NCBI GenBank assembly: GCA_020849765.1
Contig: JADLAY010000017.1
Coordinates: 44,906 to 108,905 of the forward strand
Source of the DNA: Anaerolineae bacterium
GTDB taxonomy: Bacteria > Chloroflexota > Anaerolineae > Aggregatilineales > Phototrophicaceae
Length of the DNA: 64,000 nucleotides
Direction of reading: 5' to 3'
The position numbers and the translations under genes were made by a program. Below, in pieces: positions 18,095 to 44,603 of the stretch. The notes under the pieces were generated by a model. That model made no database searches, was not told where the DNA came from, and saw only the letters and a list, made by a program, of their open reading frames with translations. Each line of letters begins with the position of its first letter. The first letter of the stretch is position 1.

Positions 18095-18329
18095 CTAGAC
18101 TCTCCGTTCAGTCAGGCGGGAGGCTCAATGGTAGCCGATACGCCCAGCTTTGCCAGGGCGGGAGTTTGAGGACAGAGGCACGCCGAAGCACTCATAGTCA
18201 GCCAGACTGGCTTACCGACGTACCATTTGCCAGACGACTTAAGAGGATCATCCTCCCCCATTTTCACGGGGGTTTCGACACTTGGCGTAGAAGATTTACA
18301 AATTTCTTCTATTTGGAAATTATCATGCT

Positions 18330-19367
18330 ATGGCATACGGCAATCGTATGAACTTCTACGGCCACACAAGCCTGATGGAAGGGTCGGTGAATATGAGTTT
18401 GGAGACATCTCACGTGCAGTTGGCGCAAGCGATGGCACATCTCGAAAAAGATGAAACAGCCGAAGCGTTGCGCTTGCTGAATGACCTGATTGAAAAGGTC
18501 GACCTCCTCGACGCGCATCGTTTGCGCTTCACCATCTTGATAAAACGAATCGACAATCCCCATGATCTACGCGCATCACTGGACGTGTTGCGAACGGAAG
18601 CCCCTGATATATACAGCGCCGGGTTGGTGGAACTCGAGACTCAAATTCACAATCGTTTGAGCGAATTGCAGGACGGGATTACCGAAGCCACGCAGCGTGC
18701 CGAGATGCAGTCGTACCTCGACGAATACGACGCACTTGTGGTGTTGAGCGACCTGTTCCCCGTCATTCAGGTTGCCCGTGGGCTGGGCTATATGGCCGCC
18801 GCTCGCATCAGGGACAAAAAGGGGCAACCGGGCACCGAATCCCCCTACGAACATCTGCGGAGATTGCTCGCTAAAGACATGGCGGTCCCTTTCATGCGCG
18901 AACGTAATGAAACGGACAGCGTCGACGATACACAGGCCGAAAGGTGGCGCATGACCGCAGAACAGGCACTGTCTGCGGCGCTGATTTCCTTAACGCCGAA
19001 TCATCCATCCGTTGTCGAGATCCATGAAGTCTTAGGGATGCTCTACGAGGGCATGCATGAATACAGCAAGGCACTGCGGTCCTTTCAGGCCGCAATAGAG
19101 CACGGCAGCAGCAACATGGAGGACAAGGTACACGAACTCACAACGAAGATCAAACAGGAAACAGAGCGTCTGGCACTGGAGCGAGTCGATTCACTCCTGG
19201 CGAACCAACACCTGGACGAAGCCGAAACCTGCCTGGCGGAGTATGCGCCAGATGCGTTGACCGATGCCTGGCACTTACGTTATGCGGAACTCGCATTGCT
19301 ACGTGGTGACCGCGAAACAGCAATGCATCACTACGCCCTCATCCTGCCCCTTGTCCACAACAAATGA
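18330..19367 (+). CDS. All-helical, TPR-like repeat protein, function unknown
   Basis: 345 aa with natural composition in a lower-GC patch. Start uncertain (ATGs at 18330, 18348, 18375, 18390). The stop is 15 nt before the next gene's ATG (AAGGAG RBS), so an operon. Confidence 0.6.
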   Translation: MAYGNRMNFYGHTSLMEGSVNMSLETSHVQLAQAMAHLEKDETAEALRLLNDLIEKVDLLDAHRLRFTILIKRIDNPHDLRASLDVLRTEAPDIYSAGLVELETQIHNRLSELQDGITEATQRAEMQSYLDEYDALVVLSDLFPVIQVARGLGYMAAARIRDKKGQPGTESPYEHLRRLLAKDMAVPFMRERNETDSVDDTQAERWRMTAEQALSAALISLTPNHPSVVEIHEVLGMLYEGMHEYSKALRSFQAAIEHGSSNMEDKVHELTTKIKQETERLALERVDSLLANQHLDEAETCLAEYAPDALTDAWHLRYAELALLRGDRETAMHHYALILPLVHNK

Positions 19368-19382
19368 GCAAGGAGATACCTG

Positions 19383-22124
19383 ATGGACTGGAATGATCCT
19401 TTCGTTGTGAGTAAAGCCTACGCGAAACTCCGCTCCATCGATCCGCCTGTCAATGCCGGATCAGATGCGGCTGTCCTTCCTCACGTGGCATTCAACGTGC
19501 CCGCCGATGACGTCAGGCGCCGAGCGCTTGCGGGTGTGCTTCATCTTCATCGCCAGGGTCGCCAGCAGTTTGATTTTCTGCCGCACCTGGAGACAGCCCT
19601 CCTATATGGCGACTTCGATGAGGAGACCAAACGCACGCTGCGCGCTGAAATCCGGGCGATTGAACGCGAGCGCCAGCAAGCTGCTTTTGCGACGATTCGC
19701 AGACTCAAGCGGAAGAAACTGCATGTCCAACCGAAACGCCGTTCGACAACCCGCCAACCCGCATCGTTTGTGATGCAGGTGACCGACGATAGCTGCATCG
19801 TCCGCTTTGGCTACCGGCTCACTAACGTGCGCGCAGTGCGCTTTGACATGCCCGTCGAGGCGGAAGGCGCGGCGTTACTCAGAACGCTGACTCAGGCTGT
19901 TGAAATCTGGAAAGACCGCCTCAGCCTGGGCCTTGAAGCTGACTTTACCTGGCGCTATTCCAGCGAGGCTCACCGTGTGAATCTGGAGTTGCTGGTTGAG
20001 CTTCATTTGCCGGAACCTGAAATGGCGGAGGAAGTCGTTCGTGGCCTACAAACCATCATTGAAAACCAACAGCCATTTCCCGAAGTCTATCATTTTGCGC
20101 GAATCGTCGAAAGGAAGCATCTTAAGAATTTCTACGGCAGCACATCGTTTGCCAGCGTCGCGGAGATCGTGCGCCATGAAGGTGTGATGGAGTATGAAGG
20201 GAAGAACCTCTATGTGATCTTTCCGGTGAAGGTGGATAGCGACCGCTTACACGATCTCATGGTCTACCTGCGTAGCGCAACGGATGGCAACGTCATCGAC
20301 ATCAAGATACGCCCCTCTGCGGTGACGCGCTCAGAGATCGATGCCGCTCTCGAGGCTATCACCATTGGCGTGAGTTATTATGACGAGGACAGCGAAGAGA
20401 TTCGGCTGAAAATGTCGGAAGGCGCGATCTTTGACCATCAATGGCTGAAAGCGCTGGATGCTTACCGGATGATGCTTTCCCAGATCCACAGCCAGGCTTA
20501 CGAAGTGCGCCTGCGTGTTGCCAGCAAAACGGATATCGACATCTTGCCGCTCGCCACGTTGGCCGGGCGTTCGCTCCTTGGCCTGGGAGCCTTCGACGTG
20601 ATTCCGGCGGCCTATGGTGCTCGGTCAATCGCCCTTGACGATCTGTCACCTCGCACCCGCGCCCCGGCAGAACTATCTCGGTTGCGCCGCATGTGGTCGC
20701 TTGTCGAAACAGCTTTTGTCACCCGCCTGCCACGACCATCTGCGGCGGGCATACCGGGAATCCCAATGACCCAGGTTAAGCCCCACCGGATACCCTCCGG
20801 GCTGCCTGAAGAGGGCTGTGTACTTGGACAGGTCACATCACAGGGAGAAACCACACCCACCCTGGTAAAACTACCTTACGTCGACCGCACACGACATGTC
20901 TATGTCGTCGGCCGAACCGGCACCGGCAAAACGACCATGCTGCATAACATGGCGCTGCAAGACATCGAAAATGGGCATGGTGTTGGGGTGATCGACCCCC
21001 ATGGCGACTTGATCGATGCGTTGTTGGAGCGCATACCGCACCATAGAGCCGGGGATGTTGTCCTGTTTGACCCTGGGGATATCTCGCGCCCGGTGGGTTT
21101 GAATTTGCTCGACGTGGAGGGCCCCATTGCGCAGAATTTGGCTGTCGCCGATTTTATTGGCTTGATGTACAGCATGTACGATCCGGGCCACACCGGGATC
21201 GTCGGCCCTCGATTCGAGCAAAGCGTGCGCAACAGCATGTACACCGCGATGGCAATACCCGGTGCGACCATCATCGACGTGCTGCGCATTATTAGCGATA
21301 ACCGGTACAGTCACGACGTCCAGAAGTATCTCACCGATCCGATTGTCAAAGACTATTGGGAGAAGATATACGACAGCCAGAGTGACTTTCATCGCAGCGA
21401 AGTCAAAGACTACATCACCAGCAAGTTCAGCCGCTTCACATCCGATCGTATGGTGCGGCAGATTATCGGCCAATCCAAGACCAGTCTCAATTTCGCCGAC
21501 ATTTTCAACAACAAGAAGATTCTGCTCGTCAATCTGGCGAAAGGGCGTATCGGCGAGTTCAACAGCCAGTTCCTGGGCTTCATTCTCGTATCGCAATTGT
21601 TGATTGCCGCATTCCAACGTGTGAACCAGGCTGTTGATCTGCGTATCCCATACTATCTGTACATTGATGAGTTTCAGAACTTCGCCACACCCGGCCTGGG
21701 GGCCATGCTTTCGGAGGGGCGAAAATATGGACTGGCGCTCACGCTGGCGCATCAATTCATCCATCAGCTGGATGTCAAAATCCGTGAAGCGGTTTTCGGT
21801 AACGTAGGCACTATCTGCGCTTTCCAGGTTGGGTTGCAGGATGCAGAGTATCTGGCTCGCGAGATGTACCCCGTCTTTGGCACTGACGATCTGGTCAATT
21901 TGCCAGCATATCATGCCGCGTCCAAGATTTTGGCGCACAAACAGACCCTGATGCCGTTTGTGATGCAGACGCTGCCCGAACAGAATCAGCCGCGAAAGGA
22001 AGTTGCTGACGCCATCCGGACTTTCAGTGGCCTGACATATGGGAGTAACGCGGCTGTCGTCGAAGACAACATTCGCGCTCAATTCGCGCTGCCCCTACAG
22101 AAACGTATGGAGCTGCTGACCTGA
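19383..22124 (+). CDS. Large P-loop ATPase of the HerA/FtsK/VirD4-TraD type with an unrecognised ~480-aa N-terminal region
   Basis: Walker A VVGRTGTGKTT (about nt 20905-20940), then VGVIDPHGDL. Walker B-like YYLYIDEFQNF. EGRKYGLALTLAHQ (TraG-D_C/HerA-like). No TM segments. Confidence 0.75.
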   Translation: MDWNDPFVVSKAYAKLRSIDPPVNAGSDAAVLPHVAFNVPADDVRRRALAGVLHLHRQGRQQFDFLPHLETALLYGDFDEETKRTLRAEIRAIERERQQAAFATIRRLKRKKLHVQPKRRSTTRQPASFVMQVTDDSCIVRFGYRLTNVRAVRFDMPVEAEGAALLRTLTQAVEIWKDRLSLGLEADFTWRYSSEAHRVNLELLVELHLPEPEMAEEVVRGLQTIIENQQPFPEVYHFARIVERKHLKNFYGSTSFASVAEIVRHEGVMEYEGKNLYVIFPVKVDSDRLHDLMVYLRSATDGNVIDIKIRPSAVTRSEIDAALEAITIGVSYYDEDSEEIRLKMSEGAIFDHQWLKALDAYRMMLSQIHSQAYEVRLRVASKTDIDILPLATLAGRSLLGLGAFDVIPAAYGARSIALDDLSPRTRAPAELSRLRRMWSLVETAFVTRLPRPSAAGIPGIPMTQVKPHRIPSGLPEEGCVLGQVTSQGETTPTLVKLPYVDRTRHVYVVGRTGTGKTTMLHNMALQDIENGHGVGVIDPHGDLIDALLERIPHHRAGDVVLFDPGDISRPVGLNLLDVEGPIAQNLAVADFIGLMYSMYDPGHTGIVGPRFEQSVRNSMYTAMAIPGATIIDVLRIISDNRYSHDVQKYLTDPIVKDYWEKIYDSQSDFHRSEVKDYITSKFSRFTSDRMVRQIIGQSKTSLNFADIFNNKKILLVNLAKGRIGEFNSQFLGFILVSQLLIAAFQRVNQAVDLRIPYYLYIDEFQNFATPGLGAMLSEGRKYGLALTLAHQFIHQLDVKIREAVFGNVGTICAFQVGLQDAEYLAREMYPVFGTDDLVNLPAYHAASKILAHKQTLMPFVMQTLPEQNQPRKEVADAIRTFSGLTYGSNAAVVEDNIRAQFALPLQKRMELLT

Positions 22125-22566
22125 CAACCCGTAATGCAAAGGCAAGAATGCCACAGAGCATAAGGCGAAGACTGGCTTCAGGTGAGCAAGTACCAACGGC
22201 CAATGAGGCGAGAACTGCCGTCAGGGGTCGTCGGCAGTCACCTGTGGCAATACCCAGGACGTTCAACCAGCGGCGAAGATCGGCTTGAGGACGAGCGCGC
22301 CGCCGAGGCAGACGAAGATGTAGACGAGATTGACGACCGCGCGGGTCGCCCAGGGATGGTGCGAGAAATCGAGCCCGACCGCGCGCCCAACGATCACAAC
22401 GACGGTCGCCAGGTCGTGCAGGCCCGCCCGAAATGACGAACGTCATCAGCAGCGCGATCACACAGCGTGGGATTCGGCCTCTCACACGGAAGGCTCATGC
22501 AACCGATGCTAACGCGGCGGCGTATACGGGGTTACGACTCGTGAACACAAATGCAGGGCATTGATC

Positions 22567-25999: not shown

Positions 26000-26494
26000 T
26001 TACGACTCGTTTACAGGCGTGCGCCTGATACGGCGGATGATGTAACGCAGGGTGCCATCCGGCACTTTGACTTCGATCACGTCGCCCTTCTGGCAGCCGA
26101 GCAGGATCTTGCCGACCGGCGATTCGACTGAGACGCCGTCGCCCAGGTAGGCGACTTCCTCGTGGCTGCGCAGGACGAAGGTATCCGTTTCGCTGGTGTC
26201 GATGTCTTCGATGGTGACTTCGTCGCCCATGTCGACGCGATGCGGATCGGGATCTTCCTCAATGATCTCCGCCCGGTCGAGCACCGAACGCAAATAATTG
26301 ATGCGCTCGTCCAGATATTCTTTCTGCACGCGCGATTCGTAATCCGTGCCCTCGTCGTCCGGCTGCAGACCGCCCTCGCGGCGGATGTCGATCAGCTGTT
26401 CGGTCACCTGACGCTGGCGCTCGAGTAAAGCGTCGAGCTCGCGCTTGAGATTGTCATAACCCTGGCGTGTGAGTGTGAAGTTTTCAGCAGCCAT
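26000..26494 (-). CDS. greA: Transcription elongation factor GreA
   Basis: 164 aa from ATG 26492-26494. MAAENFTLTRQGYDNLKRELDAL.. coiled-coil N-terminus and a C-terminal ..SVESPVGKILLGCQKGDVIEVKVP.. motif. Confidence 0.9.
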   Translation of the reverse strand: MAAENFTLTRQGYDNLKRELDALLERQRQVTEQLIDIRREGGLQPDDEGTDYESRVQKEYLDERINYLRSVLDRAEIIEEDPDPHRVDMGDEVTIEDIDTSETDTFVLRSHEEVAYLGDGVSVESPVGKILLGCQKGDVIEVKVPDGTLRYIIRRIRRTPVNES

Positions 26495-26701
26495 TGCACG
26501 CCTCCAATTGTGCGTGTGGTGATTATCCTGAATTGTAGGGCCTTTTGCCCGGACATAGGACAGGGTTCGCGGGTGATGTTCGGCATGTTTACCGGTTGGT
26601 GAGTGAATGGCGACATCTATGGTAATCGCCCCTGTTTCTGTGTAGGATGGAGACTGACACGCGACTCTGGCGTAATGGAGTAGTAAAGCAAGGATAAGCA
26701 G

Positions 26702-27802
26702 ATGCATCGACTTTTTCTGATAGGGGCGGCGCTCGCGGCGGTTTTATTGATCGGCGTGCAGGTGACCGTCGCACAAGACCCGACGGCGACGACTGAGATG
26801 GCCGAGACGGTGGAGAGCCCCATCCCGGAGAACATTCGCCAGTCATTGCTGGCGGGTGGCGTCAATTTGCAGTTTGGCTTTTATGATACGGACAATTACG
26901 AGCCGGAGTCGTTTGACGAGGAACTGCCGTTGATCGCCGAGGCGGGCGCGCGCCACGTGCGGCTGCCGATCAGCATGGACATTCTCGAACGCGATCAAAC
27001 CGGGCGCCTGCGCAGCGACCGCTTCGCCGACGTCAAGCGCTTCGTCGAGCTGGCGCAGTCATACGGCCTGCTCACGATCATCGACGTGCACAACACCGGC
27101 CTGCGCGAATGCGACGGCTGCCCATGGACAGAAAATTACATGTGGGGCGTGGACGTGCCGAGTGTGCGCGAGCGCCACACCAGCCTGATGGTGGCGCTGG
27201 TCACAGAGTTGTATCGCAGTGGTCTGGATCGCGATTGGTTCGTCGTTCAGCCCGCCAACGAGCCGATCTTCTCCAGCAATCCAGGCGACTGGTACGCATA
27301 TCAGGCGGAACTGCTCGGCGAAATGCGCCAGGAGTGCCCGGACTGTGTGTTCTTCGCCATGGCCCACGACTGGCAGAGCATCCAGGCGACCGTCGACAAC
27401 CTCAATCCCCCGCTTGACGATCCGCTGCTCATCTACGACGTGCATTTCTACGAGCCGCTGGCGCTGACTCACTGCGCATTTCCGGGCCAGGAGAACACCT
27501 GCCTCGGATTGGAATACCCCGGCACGTTTACTTCGTGGCGCGGCGAGGAATACTGGGACAAGGCCAAGATCGAAGAGACCTTCCAGCCGCTCGTCAACTG
27601 GCGCGATCAGTATGGCGTGATGGTGCACTTCAGCGAGGTCGGCACTGCTGACCTGCTGGCCGAAGATGTGCGCGCCCATTACCTCGGCGACGTGGTGTCG
27701 ACCCTGCGTGAAGACGGCTTCGGCTACTCGATCTTCGAGTGGCACCGCAACTTCGGCGTCAAGGGCTTCCCGGACGTGCTGGCGGCGGTCTTCCCTAACT
27801 AG
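26702..27802 (+). CDS. Secreted glycoside hydrolase family 5 (cellulase-like)
   Basis: Signal peptide MHRLFLIGAALAAVLLIGVQVTVAQ. RHVRLPI, IIDVHN and QPANEP (catalytic acid/base NEP) motifs. Confidence 0.75.
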   Translation: MHRLFLIGAALAAVLLIGVQVTVAQDPTATTEMAETVESPIPENIRQSLLAGGVNLQFGFYDTDNYEPESFDEELPLIAEAGARHVRLPISMDILERDQTGRLRSDRFADVKRFVELAQSYGLLTIIDVHNTGLRECDGCPWTENYMWGVDVPSVRERHTSLMVALVTELYRSGLDRDWFVVQPANEPIFSSNPGDWYAYQAELLGEMRQECPDCVFFAMAHDWQSIQATVDNLNPPLDDPLLIYDVHFYEPLALTHCAFPGQENTCLGLEYPGTFTSWRGEEYWDKAKIEETFQPLVNWRDQYGVMVHFSEVGTADLLAEDVRAHYLGDVVSTLREDGFGYSIFEWHRNFGVKGFPDVLAAVFPN

Positions 27803-37119: not shown

Positions 37120-38775
37120 ATGCCTAGTGCATTCATCTCTTATCGCCGCGTCGAAAGCGCTGCCCTTGCCACGCTGATCGCCGTCACCTTGCAAGACAAG
37201 CATGGCATTGAAGTTTTCGTCGATACCCGCAGTACCGACGGTGGTGGCCTGTTTCCTGACCGCTTGCGCCGCGCCATTGAACATTGCGACGTATTCGTTT
37301 GCCTGCTTGGCGCGACGACGCTGGAATCCGCCTGGGTGATGGAAGAGATCGAACATGCGCATAACTTGCGCAAGACGATGATCCCGGTCTTCCAGGAACG
37401 TTACGTTCCGCCCAACCCAATTCCCAGCGTACACGTCGAAGCACTGCTGCAATCGGATGGATTGCAGGTTCTTGATGTGCGCAACGTGTACGTCGATCAA
37501 GCTATCTCCGACTTGGCGTCAATGATCAGAAGATCCGTCGGTGCTCCAATGCCGCCGCCCAGGCGAGGCATCGGGTTACCTCTGATTGCCGCAGTCTTGG
37601 TGTTGCTCGCGTTAGTCGCCCTTGGCATCTTCCTGGTGTCTCGCGCCATGGAATCCCCCACTTCAACAGCCAGTCCGACACAGATCGCGGGTGGTGTGAC
37701 CGCCAGCACCACCATCGAGCAACCCACCGCTGCACCGACAGAAGATGCGGCTGGCACACGGGTCGCCCAATTGCAGGCCAGCCTGACCGCCTTGGCGCAA
37801 CTTCAAATCGTAGGGGAAGAAACCGCGACGGCGGACGCCGCAACGCGTGGTGCTGCTGCACAAATCGATGCGACTTTGCGGGCAGCCGCGGACACCGCGA
37901 CCGCGGCTGCCCTCGCTATCACGCAATCCGTATTGGGTGAAACGGCGACTCAGCAAGCCATTGACGCGACCGCGATAGCTAGTGTATCGACAGATACTCC
38001 CACCCCATCCGCGACACCTACGCCTATCACACTGGAATATGCTTACGCCCAGGCAGTAAATTATGATGATGGTCAGGGAAATACGGCATGGACGCCTATT
38101 GCATATACGTTTGGGGATGGCGTGACGATGGTTCTAGTACCGACGGGCTGCTTTTTGATGGGTAGCAGCGAAGGTAATATTAACGAACAGCCCATCAATG
38201 AGCAGTGCTTTGTCGTGCCATTCTGGATCGACCAGACTGAAGTGACACAGGCCGATTTTGTACGTCTGAGTGGACAAAAGGCGGCCCCGAATGAATTTCC
38301 TGCTGACCAACACCCCGTTGAGAATATCACTTGGTTCGAAGCACGTAATTTCTGCGTGTTGCGGGGTGCGCGCTTGCCAACAGAGCGCGAATGGGAATAT
38401 GCAGCCCGCGGCCCTGAAGGATGGATCTACCCATGGGGAAACATGTGGGACACGAGCTATGCTGCATGGAACCGGAGTAGATCGCAAAGAACCGCCATCG
38501 TGGGAACAGCATCAAATGGGGTTTCCTGGGTCGGTGCACAGGATATGAGCGGCAACGTCTGGGAGTGGGCGAGCTCCCTTTACCAGCCGTACCCCTATGC
38601 GGCAGACGATGGACGAGAGGGGGATATGAGAGACCTTGCGGATGCTCAACGTGTGTTGAGAGGCGGTTCTTGGTACTACGTCAGTACTATTGGCCTACGC
38701 GCGCCTACGCGCAGCGGACTCGACCCAATAGCCAAAGACAATCTATTAGGTTTCCGTTGCGCCCGCGATGTCTGA
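37120..38775 (+). CDS. TIR domain - TM - Ala/Thr-rich linker - FGE-sulfatase (SUMF1-like) domain fusion protein
   Basis: TIR_2-like FISYRRVES..CDVFVCLLG..SAWVMEEIEHA. TM IGLPLIAAVLVLLALVALGIFLV. C-terminal WIDQTEVTQADF, ENITWFEARNFC, RLPTEREWEYAARG, RVLRGGSW, GFRCA. Confidence 0.8.
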   Translation: MPSAFISYRRVESAALATLIAVTLQDKHGIEVFVDTRSTDGGGLFPDRLRRAIEHCDVFVCLLGATTLESAWVMEEIEHAHNLRKTMIPVFQERYVPPNPIPSVHVEALLQSDGLQVLDVRNVYVDQAISDLASMIRRSVGAPMPPPRRGIGLPLIAAVLVLLALVALGIFLVSRAMESPTSTASPTQIAGGVTASTTIEQPTAAPTEDAAGTRVAQLQASLTALAQLQIVGEETATADAATRGAAAQIDATLRAAADTATAAALAITQSVLGETATQQAIDATAIASVSTDTPTPSATPTPITLEYAYAQAVNYDDGQGNTAWTPIAYTFGDGVTMVLVPTGCFLMGSSEGNINEQPINEQCFVVPFWIDQTEVTQADFVRLSGQKAAPNEFPADQHPVENITWFEARNFCVLRGARLPTEREWEYAARGPEGWIYPWGNMWDTSYAAWNRSRSQRTAIVGTASNGVSWVGAQDMSGNVWEWASSLYQPYPYAADDGREGDMRDLADAQRVLRGGSWYYVSTIGLRAPTRSGLDPIAKDNLLGFRCARDV

Positions 38776-39313
38776 TTGCGACCACACTTACCCCCAGCGC
38801 AAATCGCCTCGTCTCCGCGACTATGATTACGCACAATCCGGTGCATATTTCGTCACCATCTGTACCTATCGACGTGAGCATCTCTTTGGCGAGGTCGTCG
38901 ATCAACAGATGCATCTGTCGCGGATGGGATCGATTGCTCATGACCTGTGGTACACCATCCCCGATCATCATTCGCAGGTCGAACTCGATGCGTTCGTCGT
39001 CATGCCCAACCATGTCCACGGCATCATCGTTGTAGGGACGCCGCGTGCGGCGTCCGGCGGCGAGAATGATGGGCGATCGGCGGACAGGGCACGCCCTGTC
39101 CCTACGGAATCGCTCGGAGCGATCATCGGTGCGTACAAGTCCGCCGTGACACGCACCGTCAATCAGGCGATGAGGTTGGTCGCGCCGACGGTCTGGCAGA
39201 CGCGCTATGACCATCACATCATTCGCAGCGAGCACGATCTAGACCGCATCCGCGCCTACGTCGCCGACAACTCCGCGCGATGGCTGGATGACACGCTGTT
39301 CACAAAAGGATAG
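38768..39313 (+). CDS. REP-associated tyrosine transposase (RAYT, IS200/Y1 HUH family)
   Basis: YDYAQSGAYFVTICT, HUH motif MPNHVHGIIV, VWQTRYDHHIIRSEHDL..YVADNSARW. The ATG overlaps the upstream stop (ATGTCTGA). Carries its own REP doublet in-frame. Confidence 0.8.
   Translation: MSDCDHTYPQRKSPRLRDYDYAQSGAYFVTICTYRREHLFGEVVDQQMHLSRMGSIAHDLWYTIPDHHSQVELDAFVVMPNHVHGIIVVGTPRAASGGENDGRSADRARPVPTESLGAIIGAYKSAVTRTVNQAMRLVAPTVWQTRYDHHIIRSEHDLDRIRAYVADNSARWLDDTLFTKG
39032..39105. repeat. REP doublet (REPIN-like) inside the RAYT CDS
   Basis: GTAGGGACGCCGCGTGCGGCGTCC (39032-39055) and GGACAGGGCACGCCCTGTCCCTAC (39082-39105) in inverted orientation. Translated as ..GTPRAASGGENDGRSADRARPVPTE.. Confidence 0.7.
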
Positions 39314-44532: not shown

Positions 44533-44603
44533 CTGGGGGACCTGGATTCGAACCAAGATCACCTGGGCCAGAACCAGGCGTTCTGCCGTTGAACTATCCC
44601 CCA
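44533..44603 (-). tRNA. tRNA-Gln (anticodon CTG)
   Basis: Hand-folded cloverleaf. Acceptor TGGGGGA/TCCCCCA; D stem GTTC/GAAC; anticodon stem CCTGG/CCAGG with loop TTCTGGC; T arm CTTGG-TTCGAAT-CCAGG; discriminator G. CCA is not encoded. Confidence 0.85.

Follow-up and report, generated by a model that had tools for sequence, protein, structure and literature searches.

Type IV secretion systems (T4SSs) have VirB4 (TrwK in plasmid R388) as their signature ATPase, and it binds the tails of VirB3 and VirB8. Type IV coupling proteins (T4CPs; TrwB, VirD4 and TraD) carry a motor that resembles the one described below, behind an N-terminal transmembrane (TM) anchor. SIR2-HerA, DUF4297-HerA and MADS (mad8) share with our locus the P-loop superfamily and, in outline, the pairing of a hexameric ATPase with a partner gene. 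An ‘EccE3-HerA’ module has been described in extended Type III-A CoCoNuT loci (Bell et al., eLife 2024, PMC11090510). In CPR/Patescibacteria, which have been placed as a sister lineage to Chloroflexota, VirD4-type homologues are soluble and possibly exapted; most of the 5,713 patescibacterial T4CP homologues lie away from virB4, which provides a precedent for exaptation (PMC12102498).

The window, that is, the whole 64,000-nt stretch of Anaerolineae DNA analysed here, contains a two-gene cassette (genes A and B) that resembles several of these systems in part. Our preferred reading, with a probability of roughly 0.55, is that A and B each supply one half of a soluble motor complex that is specific to this lineage, derives from T4SS ATPases and works without a secretion channel. 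The cassette and its surroundings contain the following features:

18100..22200, no strand: low-GC island with the A+B cassette (GC ∼0.55, GC3 ∼0.65)
18295..18323, plus strand: promoter-like site upstream of gene A (TTTACA, 17 nt, AATTAT), a consensus match only
18330/18393–19367, plus strand: gene A, helical (TPR-like) partner, longest ORF 345 aa
19370..19375, plus strand: ribosome-binding site (AAGGAG) that precedes the gene B ATG by 7 nt
19383..22124, plus strand: gene B, 913-aa soluble ATPase of predicted VirB4-like architecture
19383..19721, plus strand: helical head of gene B (residues 1–113), secondary structure from a low-confidence model
19743..20822, plus strand: mid-domain of gene B (residues 121–480), predicted VirB4 N-terminal-domain fold, also EccE-like
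20823..22124, plus strand: P-loop motor of VirD4/TrwB type (residues 481–913), with an all-alpha insertion
20907..20936, plus strand: Walker A VGRTGTGKTT (residues 509–518); G510, T512, G513, G515 and K516 invariant in 43/43
21651..21683, plus strand: Walker B YYLYIDEFQNF (residues 757–767); D762 and E763 invariant in 43/43
21708..21758, plus strand: LSEGRKYG...LAHQF (residues 776–792); E778, R780, K781, A789 and Q791 invariant in 43/43
22263..22442, minus strand: hydrophobic open stub of 59 codons that runs to a stop; GC host-like, no match to any family

Both open reading frames reported in an earlier note on this DNA are present on the plus strand (18330..19367, 345 aa; 19383..22124, 913 aa), as is the 15-nt gap between them with AAGGAG before gene B. 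The 345-aa frame of gene A exists, but the true start is probably ATG 18393 (Met22), giving 324 aa; GGAAGGG sits 9 nt upstream of this ATG, and both gene A orthologues start at the corresponding position. Promoter-like consensus sites number five in the cassette region versus 2.7 ± 1.6 in shuffles. The cassette has a radical SAM gene, a solute-binding protein, an AlaX-like gene and a cyclophilin to one side of it; to the other side lie VTT/TVP38, an alpha/beta hydrolase and a GreA-like gene. No relaxase or T4SS gene lies within ∼8 kb of the cassette in the window, in agreement with the earlier note, and no integrase or transposase does either.

The cassette is the lowest-GC 4 kb of the window. 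GC is 0.546 in gene A and 0.555 in gene B versus 0.65–0.66 in the adjacent cyclophilin, AlaX-like and TVP38 genes, and GC3 is 0.645 and 0.649 versus 0.78–0.89 in the flanking genes. Ranked against all stretches of its own length in the window, the 4,031-nt cassette interval falls in the lowest 0.3%, the window-wide minimum (0.549) begins at 18201, and past ∼22200 GC is back at the host level (0.62–0.66). The low GC and foreign composition suspected earlier are thus borne out by computation, although the dip is not unique in kind; smaller ones occur at 37–39 kb and 54–57 kb. GC3 is anomalous in the window copy only, composition being native in seven other family loci, and the window-copy value agrees with that of the genomes in which its closest homologues, L001 and L002, reside. 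Since only the window copy is anomalous, we infer that it was acquired laterally, and the donor would have been a lower-GC Anaerolineae relative. A search for an att site, integrase or empty site that would support transfer found none, and direct or inverted repeats flanking the cassette do not exceed chance. The downstream border had been read as an insertion site with decayed coding sequence (22125–22560). This reading is not supported: the region contains just the minus-strand stub, which may be a host-gene remnant or a chance frame and probably lies outside the cassette.

The motor of gene B is closest in sequence to the coupling proteins. It matches three Pfam families above their cut-offs, TrwB_AAD_bind (33.8, cut-off 20.5), DUF87 (27.1, cut-off 23.2) and TraG-D_C (24.2, cut-off 22), and T4SS-DNA_transf is likewise among the coupling-protein families that it matches, so the earlier placement in the FtsK/HerA branch with VirD4/TraD is sound. 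TrwB is the sole match in a PDB sequence search, and hhalign gives 94.5% for TrwB versus 1.6% for TrwK. The motifs listed earlier (VVGRTGTGKTT, VGVIDPHGDL, YYLYIDEFQNF and EGRKYGLALTLAHQ) are all found in the translation, and alignment of 43 family members indicates that the catalytic residues are intact. Walker A, Walker B and GRKxG are common to gene B and T4CPs; LSEGRKYG...LAHQF aligns with TrwB KGRKAG...GLQS and, by this alignment, is a putative arginine-finger/sensor region. Gene B differs from T4CPs in its 480-aa soluble N-region, in its lack of relaxase or T4SS linkage and in having no TM anchor. The maximum 19-residue Kyte-Doolittle mean is 1.62 in gene B and 1.48 in gene A versus 2.48 in TrwB (other controls: VirB3 2.39, soluble TrwK 1.25), and the absence of TM segments claimed earlier therefore stands. 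Among species-representative genomes the closest motor sequences are the soluble VirD4-type homologues of CPR/Patescibacteria (38–44% identity, residues ∼500–870). These differ in being only 447–601 aa long and lacking the gene B N-region; they occur as tandem paralogues downstream of a 473-aa TM protein that has no significant similarity to the gene B mid-domain.

The DUF87 match, which is to the HerA central domain, and weak HerA matches in PADLOC and NCBIfam raise the question of a DNA-end-processing or repair ATPase akin to HerA-NurA. We consider this extremely improbable: DUF87 spans residues 481–574 only, the fold matches obtained for the region preceding the motor include no HerA structure, the NCBIfam model HerA_antiphage_2 reaches just 12 bits where its cut-off is 850, and there is no NurA or other nuclease partner.

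The region ahead of the motor points to VirB4. The earlier note called the N-terminal ∼480 aa unassignable; this is right for sequence, with no Pfam family found in 27 members, but the region can be assigned by predicted fold. The mid-domain, which terminates in a conserved linker (RLPxPxxxGxPG), is predicted to adopt the VirB4 N-terminal-domain fold, with modest Foldseek TM-scores (0.34–0.40). That the match is to the N-domain rather than to the motor is read from the Foldseek hit list, which comes without residue ranges. Gene B would therefore have the VirB4 domain order of helical head, N-domain fold and motor. It differs from VirB4/TrwK in that its motor aligns to TrwB instead, in its extra helical head, in a helical/TPR partner that takes the place of VirB3/VirB8 and in the lack of nearby T4SS genes; PF03135 is absent, and the N-domain shows no detectable sequence similarity (hhalign 0.1%). 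No sequence or profile link joins the mid-domain to TrwK, PF03135, CPR proteins or phage proteins. The last of these, from Bacillus/Geobacillus phages (phage G gp155/gp156, a 913-aa protein of phage JL, TP-84 gp48 and D6E), likewise have the mid-domain fold followed by the motor (BFVD E 3.8e-9 to 2.1e-5), and the gene B motor matches phage G gp156 in tblastn (E 1e-18). Sequence similarity to the mid-domain is not significant, however, and the phage proteins lack the helical head and partner and are encoded in early or unknown-function regions.

Gene A appears to encode a helical, TPR-like protein, with TPR-family Pfam matches just under cut-offs. Its orthologues (34–39% identity) lie upstream of gene B homologues, and in each of the four split loci whose sequence extends upstream of B (the window, L001, L002 and L026) an A-type gene sits directly 5′ of it. 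Two of the junctions are gaps, of 15 nt and 55 nt, and two are overlaps, one of 14 nt and one at TGATG. In most relatives the two are fused: proteins of ∼1,420–1,510 aa carry an A-like part in front of B. Gene A is homologous to residues 2–295 of the fused 1,422-aa P0009 (hhalign 99.2%, E 1.9e-19), its profile matches residues 3–300 of P0010 (95.6%), and positions 6–103 of the gene B head profile match P0010 336–432 and P0013 349–438, right after the A-like part. A domain map of 47 relatives gives the fused order as A-like domain, B head, extra TPR, VirB4-like N-domain and motor. The extra TPR (roughly 190 aa) occupies the position of the K/R-rich linker that follows the gene B head (∼residues 100–130), and TPR_19 exceeds its Pfam cut-off in relatives at about 530–630. 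Co-orientation, the short gap, co-occurrence and fusion all support the earlier claim of an operon and functional pair. Judging by the larger number and diversity of long forms, and not by a tree, we infer that the split form seen here is the product of gene fission.

The family is a rare one, with 47 clusters at 50% identity in a set of 1.84 billion representatives, and all members with a taxon name are Anaerolineae/Chloroflexota. No plasmid or phage record contains more than the motor, the N-region being on no plasmid; viral contigs gave no match to the family, and no species-representative genome matched the N-region pattern. Views reaching at most 10 kb to either side of each gene show unrelated neighbours, and no T4SS gene or relaxase, in 11 family loci besides the window; homologues have neither a T4SS context nor one conserved housekeeping context, so the earlier finding survives this check. 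Given the reach of these views, T4SS genes could sit elsewhere in the genomes. Gene B might be a dispersed or remnant conjugative part, a coupling protein or VirB4 whose partners are elsewhere or lost. Its best sequence matches are T4CP families, a distant relative (P0005) is a coupling protein next to a relaxase and a serine recombinase, and coupling-protein genes can sit far from virB4 (PMC12102498). We nevertheless regard this as quite improbable: both proteins lack a TM anchor, integrases and transposases are absent from the 11 loci as well, and catalytic motifs and full length are kept over deep divergence, which argues against decay. We also know of no T4SS ATPase with a constant fusion to a helical array.

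A role in anti-phage or anti-plasmid defence, with the helical/TPR module as sensor of some invader component and the motor either acting on the invader's DNA or switching on something else, is possible but doubtful. The family is accessory, rare and patchy, the window copy was apparently acquired laterally, and the helical part evolves fast (in the same ortholog pairs, 34–39% identity in A versus 74–76% in the motor). Conflict genes adjoin or approach some members: NB-ARC-WD40 beside P0015, E2-CBASS/ThiF ∼7 kb from P0055 and nSTAND1-RelA ∼4 kb from P0013. These are not conserved, however, are common in Chloroflexota and are absent at 5 of 10 family loci with flanking sequence; the native composition of seven other loci also weighs against defence. 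MADS mad8 is the only PADLOC match of gene B beyond short Walker-A-region hits (E 3.4e-15), but it reflects a generic P-loop, and MADS is an eight-gene operon rather than a two-gene cassette. One published precedent keeps a defence role in play: in predicted defence operons, an EccE3-like plus VirB4-like ATPase is accompanied by a small helical protein (PMC11090510). Compared by description, the EccE3-HerA module differs: here A+B stand by themselves, CoCoNuT, VWA and TerY-P genes being absent from every locus, and the partner is 324–345 aa and often fused. The earlier analogy to HerA with a variable second gene breaks down on the partner, which is one and the same homologous helical protein across the family and is usually fused; moreover, the N-domain is not HerA-like, and no effector domain (nuclease, SIR2, TIR or pore) occurs in A, B or the fused forms.

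FtsK/SpoIIIE, Streptomyces TraB and DNA uptake by exapted T4SS parts are analogues for a cell-biological role in filamentous Anaerolineae, where the motor, docked to a cellular structure by the helical array, would move DNA or proteins at septa or between cells, or take up DNA. Native composition and housekeeping neighbours in most loci, a strongly conserved motor with invariant catalytic residues and its occurrence as a single gene without partners fit such a role, as does the possible exaptation of the related CPR homologues (PMC12102498). It is unlikely all the same: a core function is hard to square with so rare a family, no species-representative genome matched the N-region pattern, the module is apparently laterally mobile in the window genome, and neither a membrane anchor nor a conserved neighbour points to a cellular structure.

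We thus hold the anatomical and evolutionary statements about A+B with considerable confidence, would call the pair an ‘autonomous TPR-guided translocase’ at even odds, and would assign any specific biological role only tentatively. We conjecture that, in a soluble complex of T4SS-ATPase descent, A would still bind the head or N-domain of B, the surface at which VirB4 receives the tails of VirB3 and VirB8, and the helical array would recruit either a partner or a substrate, which the hexameric motor would translocate or remodel with ATP. DNA would be the likeliest substrate, since the motor resembles those of coupling proteins and contains an all-alpha insertion. For these Anaerolineae, the A+B module would be an accessory gene set.

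The cassette comprises two adjoining genes, both read from the plus strand:

18330..19367, plus strand: gene A, the helical TPR-like partner (345 aa as the longest ORF)
19383..22124, plus strand: gene B, the ATPase (913 aa)

As the earlier note had claimed, the two ORFs are separated by 15 nt and an AAGGAG precedes B; it lies 7 nt ahead of the ATG. Candidate starts for gene A are 18330 (longest ORF), 18348 (implied by the 339-aa protein in the NCBI record) and 18393; the last of these, Met22 of the longest ORF, is most likely the true start, judging from a GGAAGGG upstream and from the orthologues, which start there. The low GC that had been suspected for the cassette holds once it is computed: GC is 0.546 in A and 0.555 in B versus 0.65–0.66 in the genes bordering the cassette to left and right (cyclophilin, AlaX-like, TVP38), GC3 is 0.645 and 0.649 versus 0.78–0.89 in the flanking genes, and the A–B interval falls in the lowest 0.3% of the window's 4-kb stretches by GC. 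The neighbours are ordinary genes: a radical SAM gene, a solute-binding protein, an AlaX-like editing protein and a cyclophilin on one side, and a VTT/TVP38 protein, an alpha/beta hydrolase and a GreA-like gene on the other. The GreA-like gene (26000–26707, minus strand) has an N-terminal extension of ∼75 aa and a GC3 of 0.67, low relative to its neighbours.

The downstream border had been read as decayed coding sequence, consistent with an insertion site. The supposed decayed sequence comes down to a hydrophobic open stub of 59 codons (22263–22442, minus strand) between the cassette and the VTT gene; its GC is host-like, its 59-aa product matches no family, and it may be either the tail of a disrupted host gene or a chance ORF. 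The insertion site fared no better: no repeats flank the cassette, and searches for flanking repeats, att sites and terminal inverted repeats returned short matches at chance level only. Terminator-like sites show no excess over shuffled sequence, and the sole Rfam match over the whole window is a tRNA-Gln at 44533–44603. In an empty-site comparison, synteny was not conserved at the locus of the best orthologue of the cyclophilin (L034, 48% identity). The window contains other, smaller GC dips at 37–39 kb and 54–57 kb. The first includes a second low-GC islet (37120–39313, GC3 0.58) whose 551-aa product joins a TIR domain (TIR_2, E = 1.2e-15) to an FGE-sulfatase domain (E = 8.8e-42). An IS200-like Y1 transposase gene (38768–39313) directly adjoins the fusion gene, which looks like a separate mobile, conflict-type gene. 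The second includes a 331-aa ORF (54638–55633, minus strand) whose GC3 of 0.51 is the window's lowest and which matches no Pfam family.

B carries an intact motor of the VirB4/VirD4 clade. All four ATPase motifs quoted by the earlier note are found in its translation, and residues ∼480–913 score above the Pfam cut-offs for TrwB_AAD_bind (33.8 bits, cut-off 20.5), TraG-D_C (24.2, cut-off 22) and DUF87 (27.1, cut-off 23.2). By hhalign, the motor matches TrwB, a VirD4-type coupling protein, at 94.5% (E = 7.5e-8) versus 1.6% for TrwK, the VirB4 of plasmid R388, and TrwB is the sole solved structure in the PDB that matches B by sequence. NCBIfam TraD/VirD4 models match far under their curated cut-offs (SXT_TraD, 45.9 bits against 366; TOL TraD, 30.7 against 647). 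With PADLOC, the sole match beyond short ones to the Walker A region is mad8 (residues 499–803, E = 3.4e-15). The Walker A lysine K516, Walker B D762/E763, R780/K781 and Q791 are invariant in 43 of 43 family members. The absence of a TM segment from both proteins is borne out by 19-residue hydropathy, which peaks at 1.48 in A and at 1.62 in B (residue 726, within the motor); controls gave 2.48 for TrwB (residue 52), 2.39 for VirB3 and 1.25 for the soluble TrwK.

Ahead of the motor, the mid-domain (residues 121–480) is, by predicted fold, a VirB4-type N-domain. The first ∼480 aa had been called unassignable, and by sequence they are: they have no Pfam family match, and PF03135 (CagE_TrbE_VirB) matches neither B nor any of 27 mid-domain sequences at a threshold as loose as E ≤ 10, with TrwK scoring 4.5e-35 as a control. 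TIGR00929 gives 10.9 bits on B against a cut-off of 643, and hhalign of the mid-domain gives 0.1% with TrwK and <1% with phage G gp156 and TP-84 gp48. By fold, an assignment can be made. An AF2 model of residues 1–470 from four sequences was unusable for fold search (pLDDT 49.6), and a model of residues 121–480 from a 27-sequence alignment reached a pLDDT of 84.6 and a pTM of 0.84. Three fold searches with the latter concur. The five top Foldseek matches are all TrwK chains (E = 1.8e-5 to 1.6e-3), and since no RecA-like ATPase appears among the top fold matches, it is the N-terminal domain of TrwK (residues 15–400; PMC9259494) that is matched, not its motor. Among viral models, the fold is matched best by gp156 of Bacillus phage G (E = 3.8e-9), a 913-aa protein of phage JL, gp155 of phage G and one protein that bears the name ‘Component of type IV transporter system’. 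This name is the description of PF03135, which matches TrwK at residues 178–382, within its N-terminal domain. The order and proportions of B are also those of VirB4, with an N-domain of ∼360 aa followed by a motor of ∼430 aa and an extra helical head (residues 1–113) in front. Because its mid-domain fold matches TrwK and its motor aligns to TrwB, B is VirB4-like in build and coupling-protein-like in motor sequence.

Gene A shows TPR-type matches that stay under the Pfam cut-offs: ARM_TT21 (25.2, cut-off 27), TPR_2 (23.2, cut-off 27) and TPR_14 (20.9, cut-off 23.5). TPR_19 rises above its cut-off in fused relatives, but in a segment that A does not have. Homologues of A with 34–39% identity lie directly upstream of B homologues at two relatives' loci (L001, L002), and at a third, L026, an A-type gene (A profile E = 3.6e-40) directly precedes the B homologue with a stop/start overlap, TGATG. 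In all, an A-type gene precedes B in four of four split loci with upstream sequence. Most relatives are single proteins of ∼1,420–1,510 aa. Over their first ∼300 residues these long forms show homology to A (hhalign: P0009, 99.2%, E = 1.9e-19; P0010, 95.6%); next come a match to the B head, an extra TPR segment (TPR_19 above cut-off), the mid-domain and the motor. Sequence homology therefore indicates that A and B of the window are two pieces of what is usually one polypeptide, which speaks strongly for their acting as a single complex. We infer a gene fission in the window's clade because long forms outnumber and out-diversify split ones, a criterion of number and diversity, not of tree topology. 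In a member at locus L024 (3000–5553) the break falls elsewhere, and the reading frames for 528 aa (mid-domain and Walker A) and 325 aa (remaining motor) overlap by 11 nt; a frameshift, pseudogene formation or faulty assembly may account for it.

The cassette was compared with several known systems. With the coupling proteins (VirD4/TrwB/TraD), B shares a nucleotide-binding domain that has Walker A and B motifs and an all-alpha insertion and is recognised by their family models. Strictly speaking B is nevertheless no coupling protein, for it is not anchored by a TM segment and is not linked to a relaxase or T4SS genes within the ≤10 kb covered on each side; its curated subfamily scores also fall below the cut-offs. 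With VirB4 (TrwK/CagE/TrbE), B shares the N-domain fold followed by a motor, but not sequence membership: PF03135 is absent and TIGR00929 falls far below its cut-off, so B was rejected as a VirB4 by sequence. Its motor sequence is nearer TrwB than TrwK, and where VirB4 would have an adjacent VirB3, the gene upstream of B encodes the soluble helical A, not a VirB3-like TM protein. A soluble common ancestor of VirB4 and VirD4 has been proposed by Guglielmini et al. (PMC3548315), and B, being soluble and pairing an N-domain of VirB4 type with a motor of VirD4 type, is at least reminiscent of it.

HerA proteins carry a HerA-type N-terminal barrel ahead of the motor, which B does not have. The DUF87 match covers residues 481–574 only, that is, the Walker A region common to the whole superfamily, and NCBIfam HerA_antiphage_2 gives 12.1 bits against a cut-off of 850. 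HerA systems pair the ATPase with an enzymatic effector (NurA, SIR2, DUF4297), whereas the only matches of A are sub-threshold and of TPR type. Membership in HerA–NurA, SIR2–HerA or DUF4297–HerA was accordingly rejected on the wrong N-domain and on the lack of a nuclease, SIR2 or DUF4297 partner, and a HerA-like role in repair, to which the DUF87 match might point, is highly improbable. MADS is an operon of eight genes, mad1–mad8 (bioRxiv 10.1101/2023.03.30.534895), that includes methylation genes; the cassette has only two, and MADS membership was rejected. The nearest published account is that of an ‘EccE3-HerA’ add-on carried by Type III-A CoCoNuT loci, in which an EccE3-like domain and a VirB4-like ATPase form one fusion, accompanied in the operon by a small helical protein (PMC11090510); the likeness is drawn from that description. 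That add-on sits between VWA genes in a McrBC-type operon, whereas the cassette stands alone: no VWA, McrB/C, HEPN or TerY-P gene occurs near it or in any of the 11 other loci.

The family is rare. A word-indexed search with B found five relatives, namely four full-length proteins (59–100% identity) and one distant coupling protein that adjoins a relaxase and a recombinase; the same search returned only A itself for A and only one relative, P0052, for the mid-domain alignment. When 1.84 billion representatives were searched exhaustively by HMMER, the N-terminal alignment brought up 47 relatives. Many are nameless, and those with a named source come from Anaerolineae, Anaerolinea sp. and Phototrophicaceae. 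All of the latter are labelled ‘hypothetical’ or ‘TPR repeat protein’ bar one, a partial, motor-only cluster member labelled ‘type IV secretory system conjugative DNA transfer family protein’. Searches of plasmid and phage records found nothing beyond the motor, with identities of ≤32% for matches spanning all of it and 37.7% for one two-piece partial match (458–763). Two patterns searched against viral contigs gave no confirmed relative.

At the 11 other loci, covered to at most 10 kb either side of the gene, there is no conserved neighbour and no T4SS gene, relaxase, integrase or transposase. In the window, as the earlier note stated, relaxase and T4SS genes are missing nearby; none occurs within ∼8 kb of the cassette. 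Although the motor recalls a coupling protein, a remnant of a T4SS or conjugation system is very unlikely. Conflict-type genes do occur near some members (NB-ARC-WD40, E2-CBASS/ThiF, nSTAND1-RelA). These neighbours are inconsistent from locus to locus. A defence or conflict role is less likely than not, and the anti-phage function envisaged by the earlier note is unsupported. In seven other loci, the GC3 of the family gene equals that of its neighbours. Since the composition of the window copy matches that of the L001 and L002 genomes, which hold its closest homologues, we infer that it was recently acquired laterally from a lower-GC relative within the Anaerolineae. Family genes elsewhere follow unusually long non-coding stretches of ∼370–580 bp (L027 9631–10000, L029 9570–10000, L032 7424–8000, L033 7513–8000 and L002 619–1100), compared with 236 bp for the window copy; a leader or regulatory element could reside there.

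The closest motors in species-representative genomes belong to soluble coupling-protein homologues of Patescibacteria (38–44% identity to B). In this phylum, 5,713 such homologues have been counted, mostly far from virB4 and maybe exapted (PMC12102498). Two loci show a conserved module (L008 7932–13107, L014 7982–13141) consisting of a 473-aa protein with N-terminal TM helices, a middle ORF (∼180 aa in L008, with a 359-aa ORF overlapping that position in L014) and two tandem soluble coupling-protein-like ATPases of 447/467 aa and 601/593 aa, whose motors are 41–42% identical to that of B; the 601-aa protein of L008 ends in a treble-clef zinc finger. The module was considered as a split version of B and rejected, as the 473-aa protein has no significant similarity to the mid-domain (hhalign 0.3–2.5%, for a single sequence and a three-sequence profile). 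Bacillus and Geobacillus phages likewise encode proteins of 550–913 aa with a B-like mid-domain fold and a motor. These include gp155–gp156 of Bacillus phage G, two adjacent copies (L039 2196–6338), and gp48 of Geobacillus phage TP-84 (L040 4218–6482); some of the phage proteins are annotated as MsbA-like, which looks wrong.

How the cassette might work can be sketched by analogy. The tails of VirB3 and VirB8 bind VirB4 at its N-domain region (PMC9259494). A may likewise bind the head or N-domain of B, in the region those tails occupy on VirB4, and B would form hexamers as its relatives do. The helical array would recruit a partner or substrate, which ATP hydrolysis would then translocate or remodel; DNA would be the likeliest substrate because the motor is of coupling-protein type. 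A cell-biological role is unlikely though conceivable.

The cassette is real, and its anatomy is of more interest than the earlier note could see: we read it as a T4SS-type ATPase that has been exapted and now stands alone with its helical adaptor. We conjecture, with a probability of roughly 15% for the reading as a whole, that it represents an unrecognised class of cytoplasmic, channel-independent translocase, combining a VirB4-type N-domain, a coupling-protein-type motor and a TPR adaptor of its own. Such a class could be a surviving relative of the proposed soluble VirB4/VirD4 ancestor, kept in the Chloroflexota/Patescibacteria lineage, and may have taken on a new use as a sensor-motor, immunity against mobile DNA being one example.

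Conjugation and many pathogen secretion systems have VirB4 and VirD4 as their engines, and the two are nearly always studied within the membrane machine. This family shows an engine of their type alone in the cytoplasm, permanently tied to a helical adaptor and kept intact across deep divergence in the Anaerolineae. It provides a two-gene, or even one-gene, system for studying the function of the VirB4 N-domain without a T4SS, and, should it turn out to serve in defence or DNA handling, the repertoire of such modules would gain a new type of motor. Its present value lies mostly in its architecture and in the evolutionary link, which bears on the divergence of the two ATPases of T4SSs from an ancestor that was soluble, and on what thousands of ‘orphan’ coupling-protein homologues do, in Patescibacteria and elsewhere.
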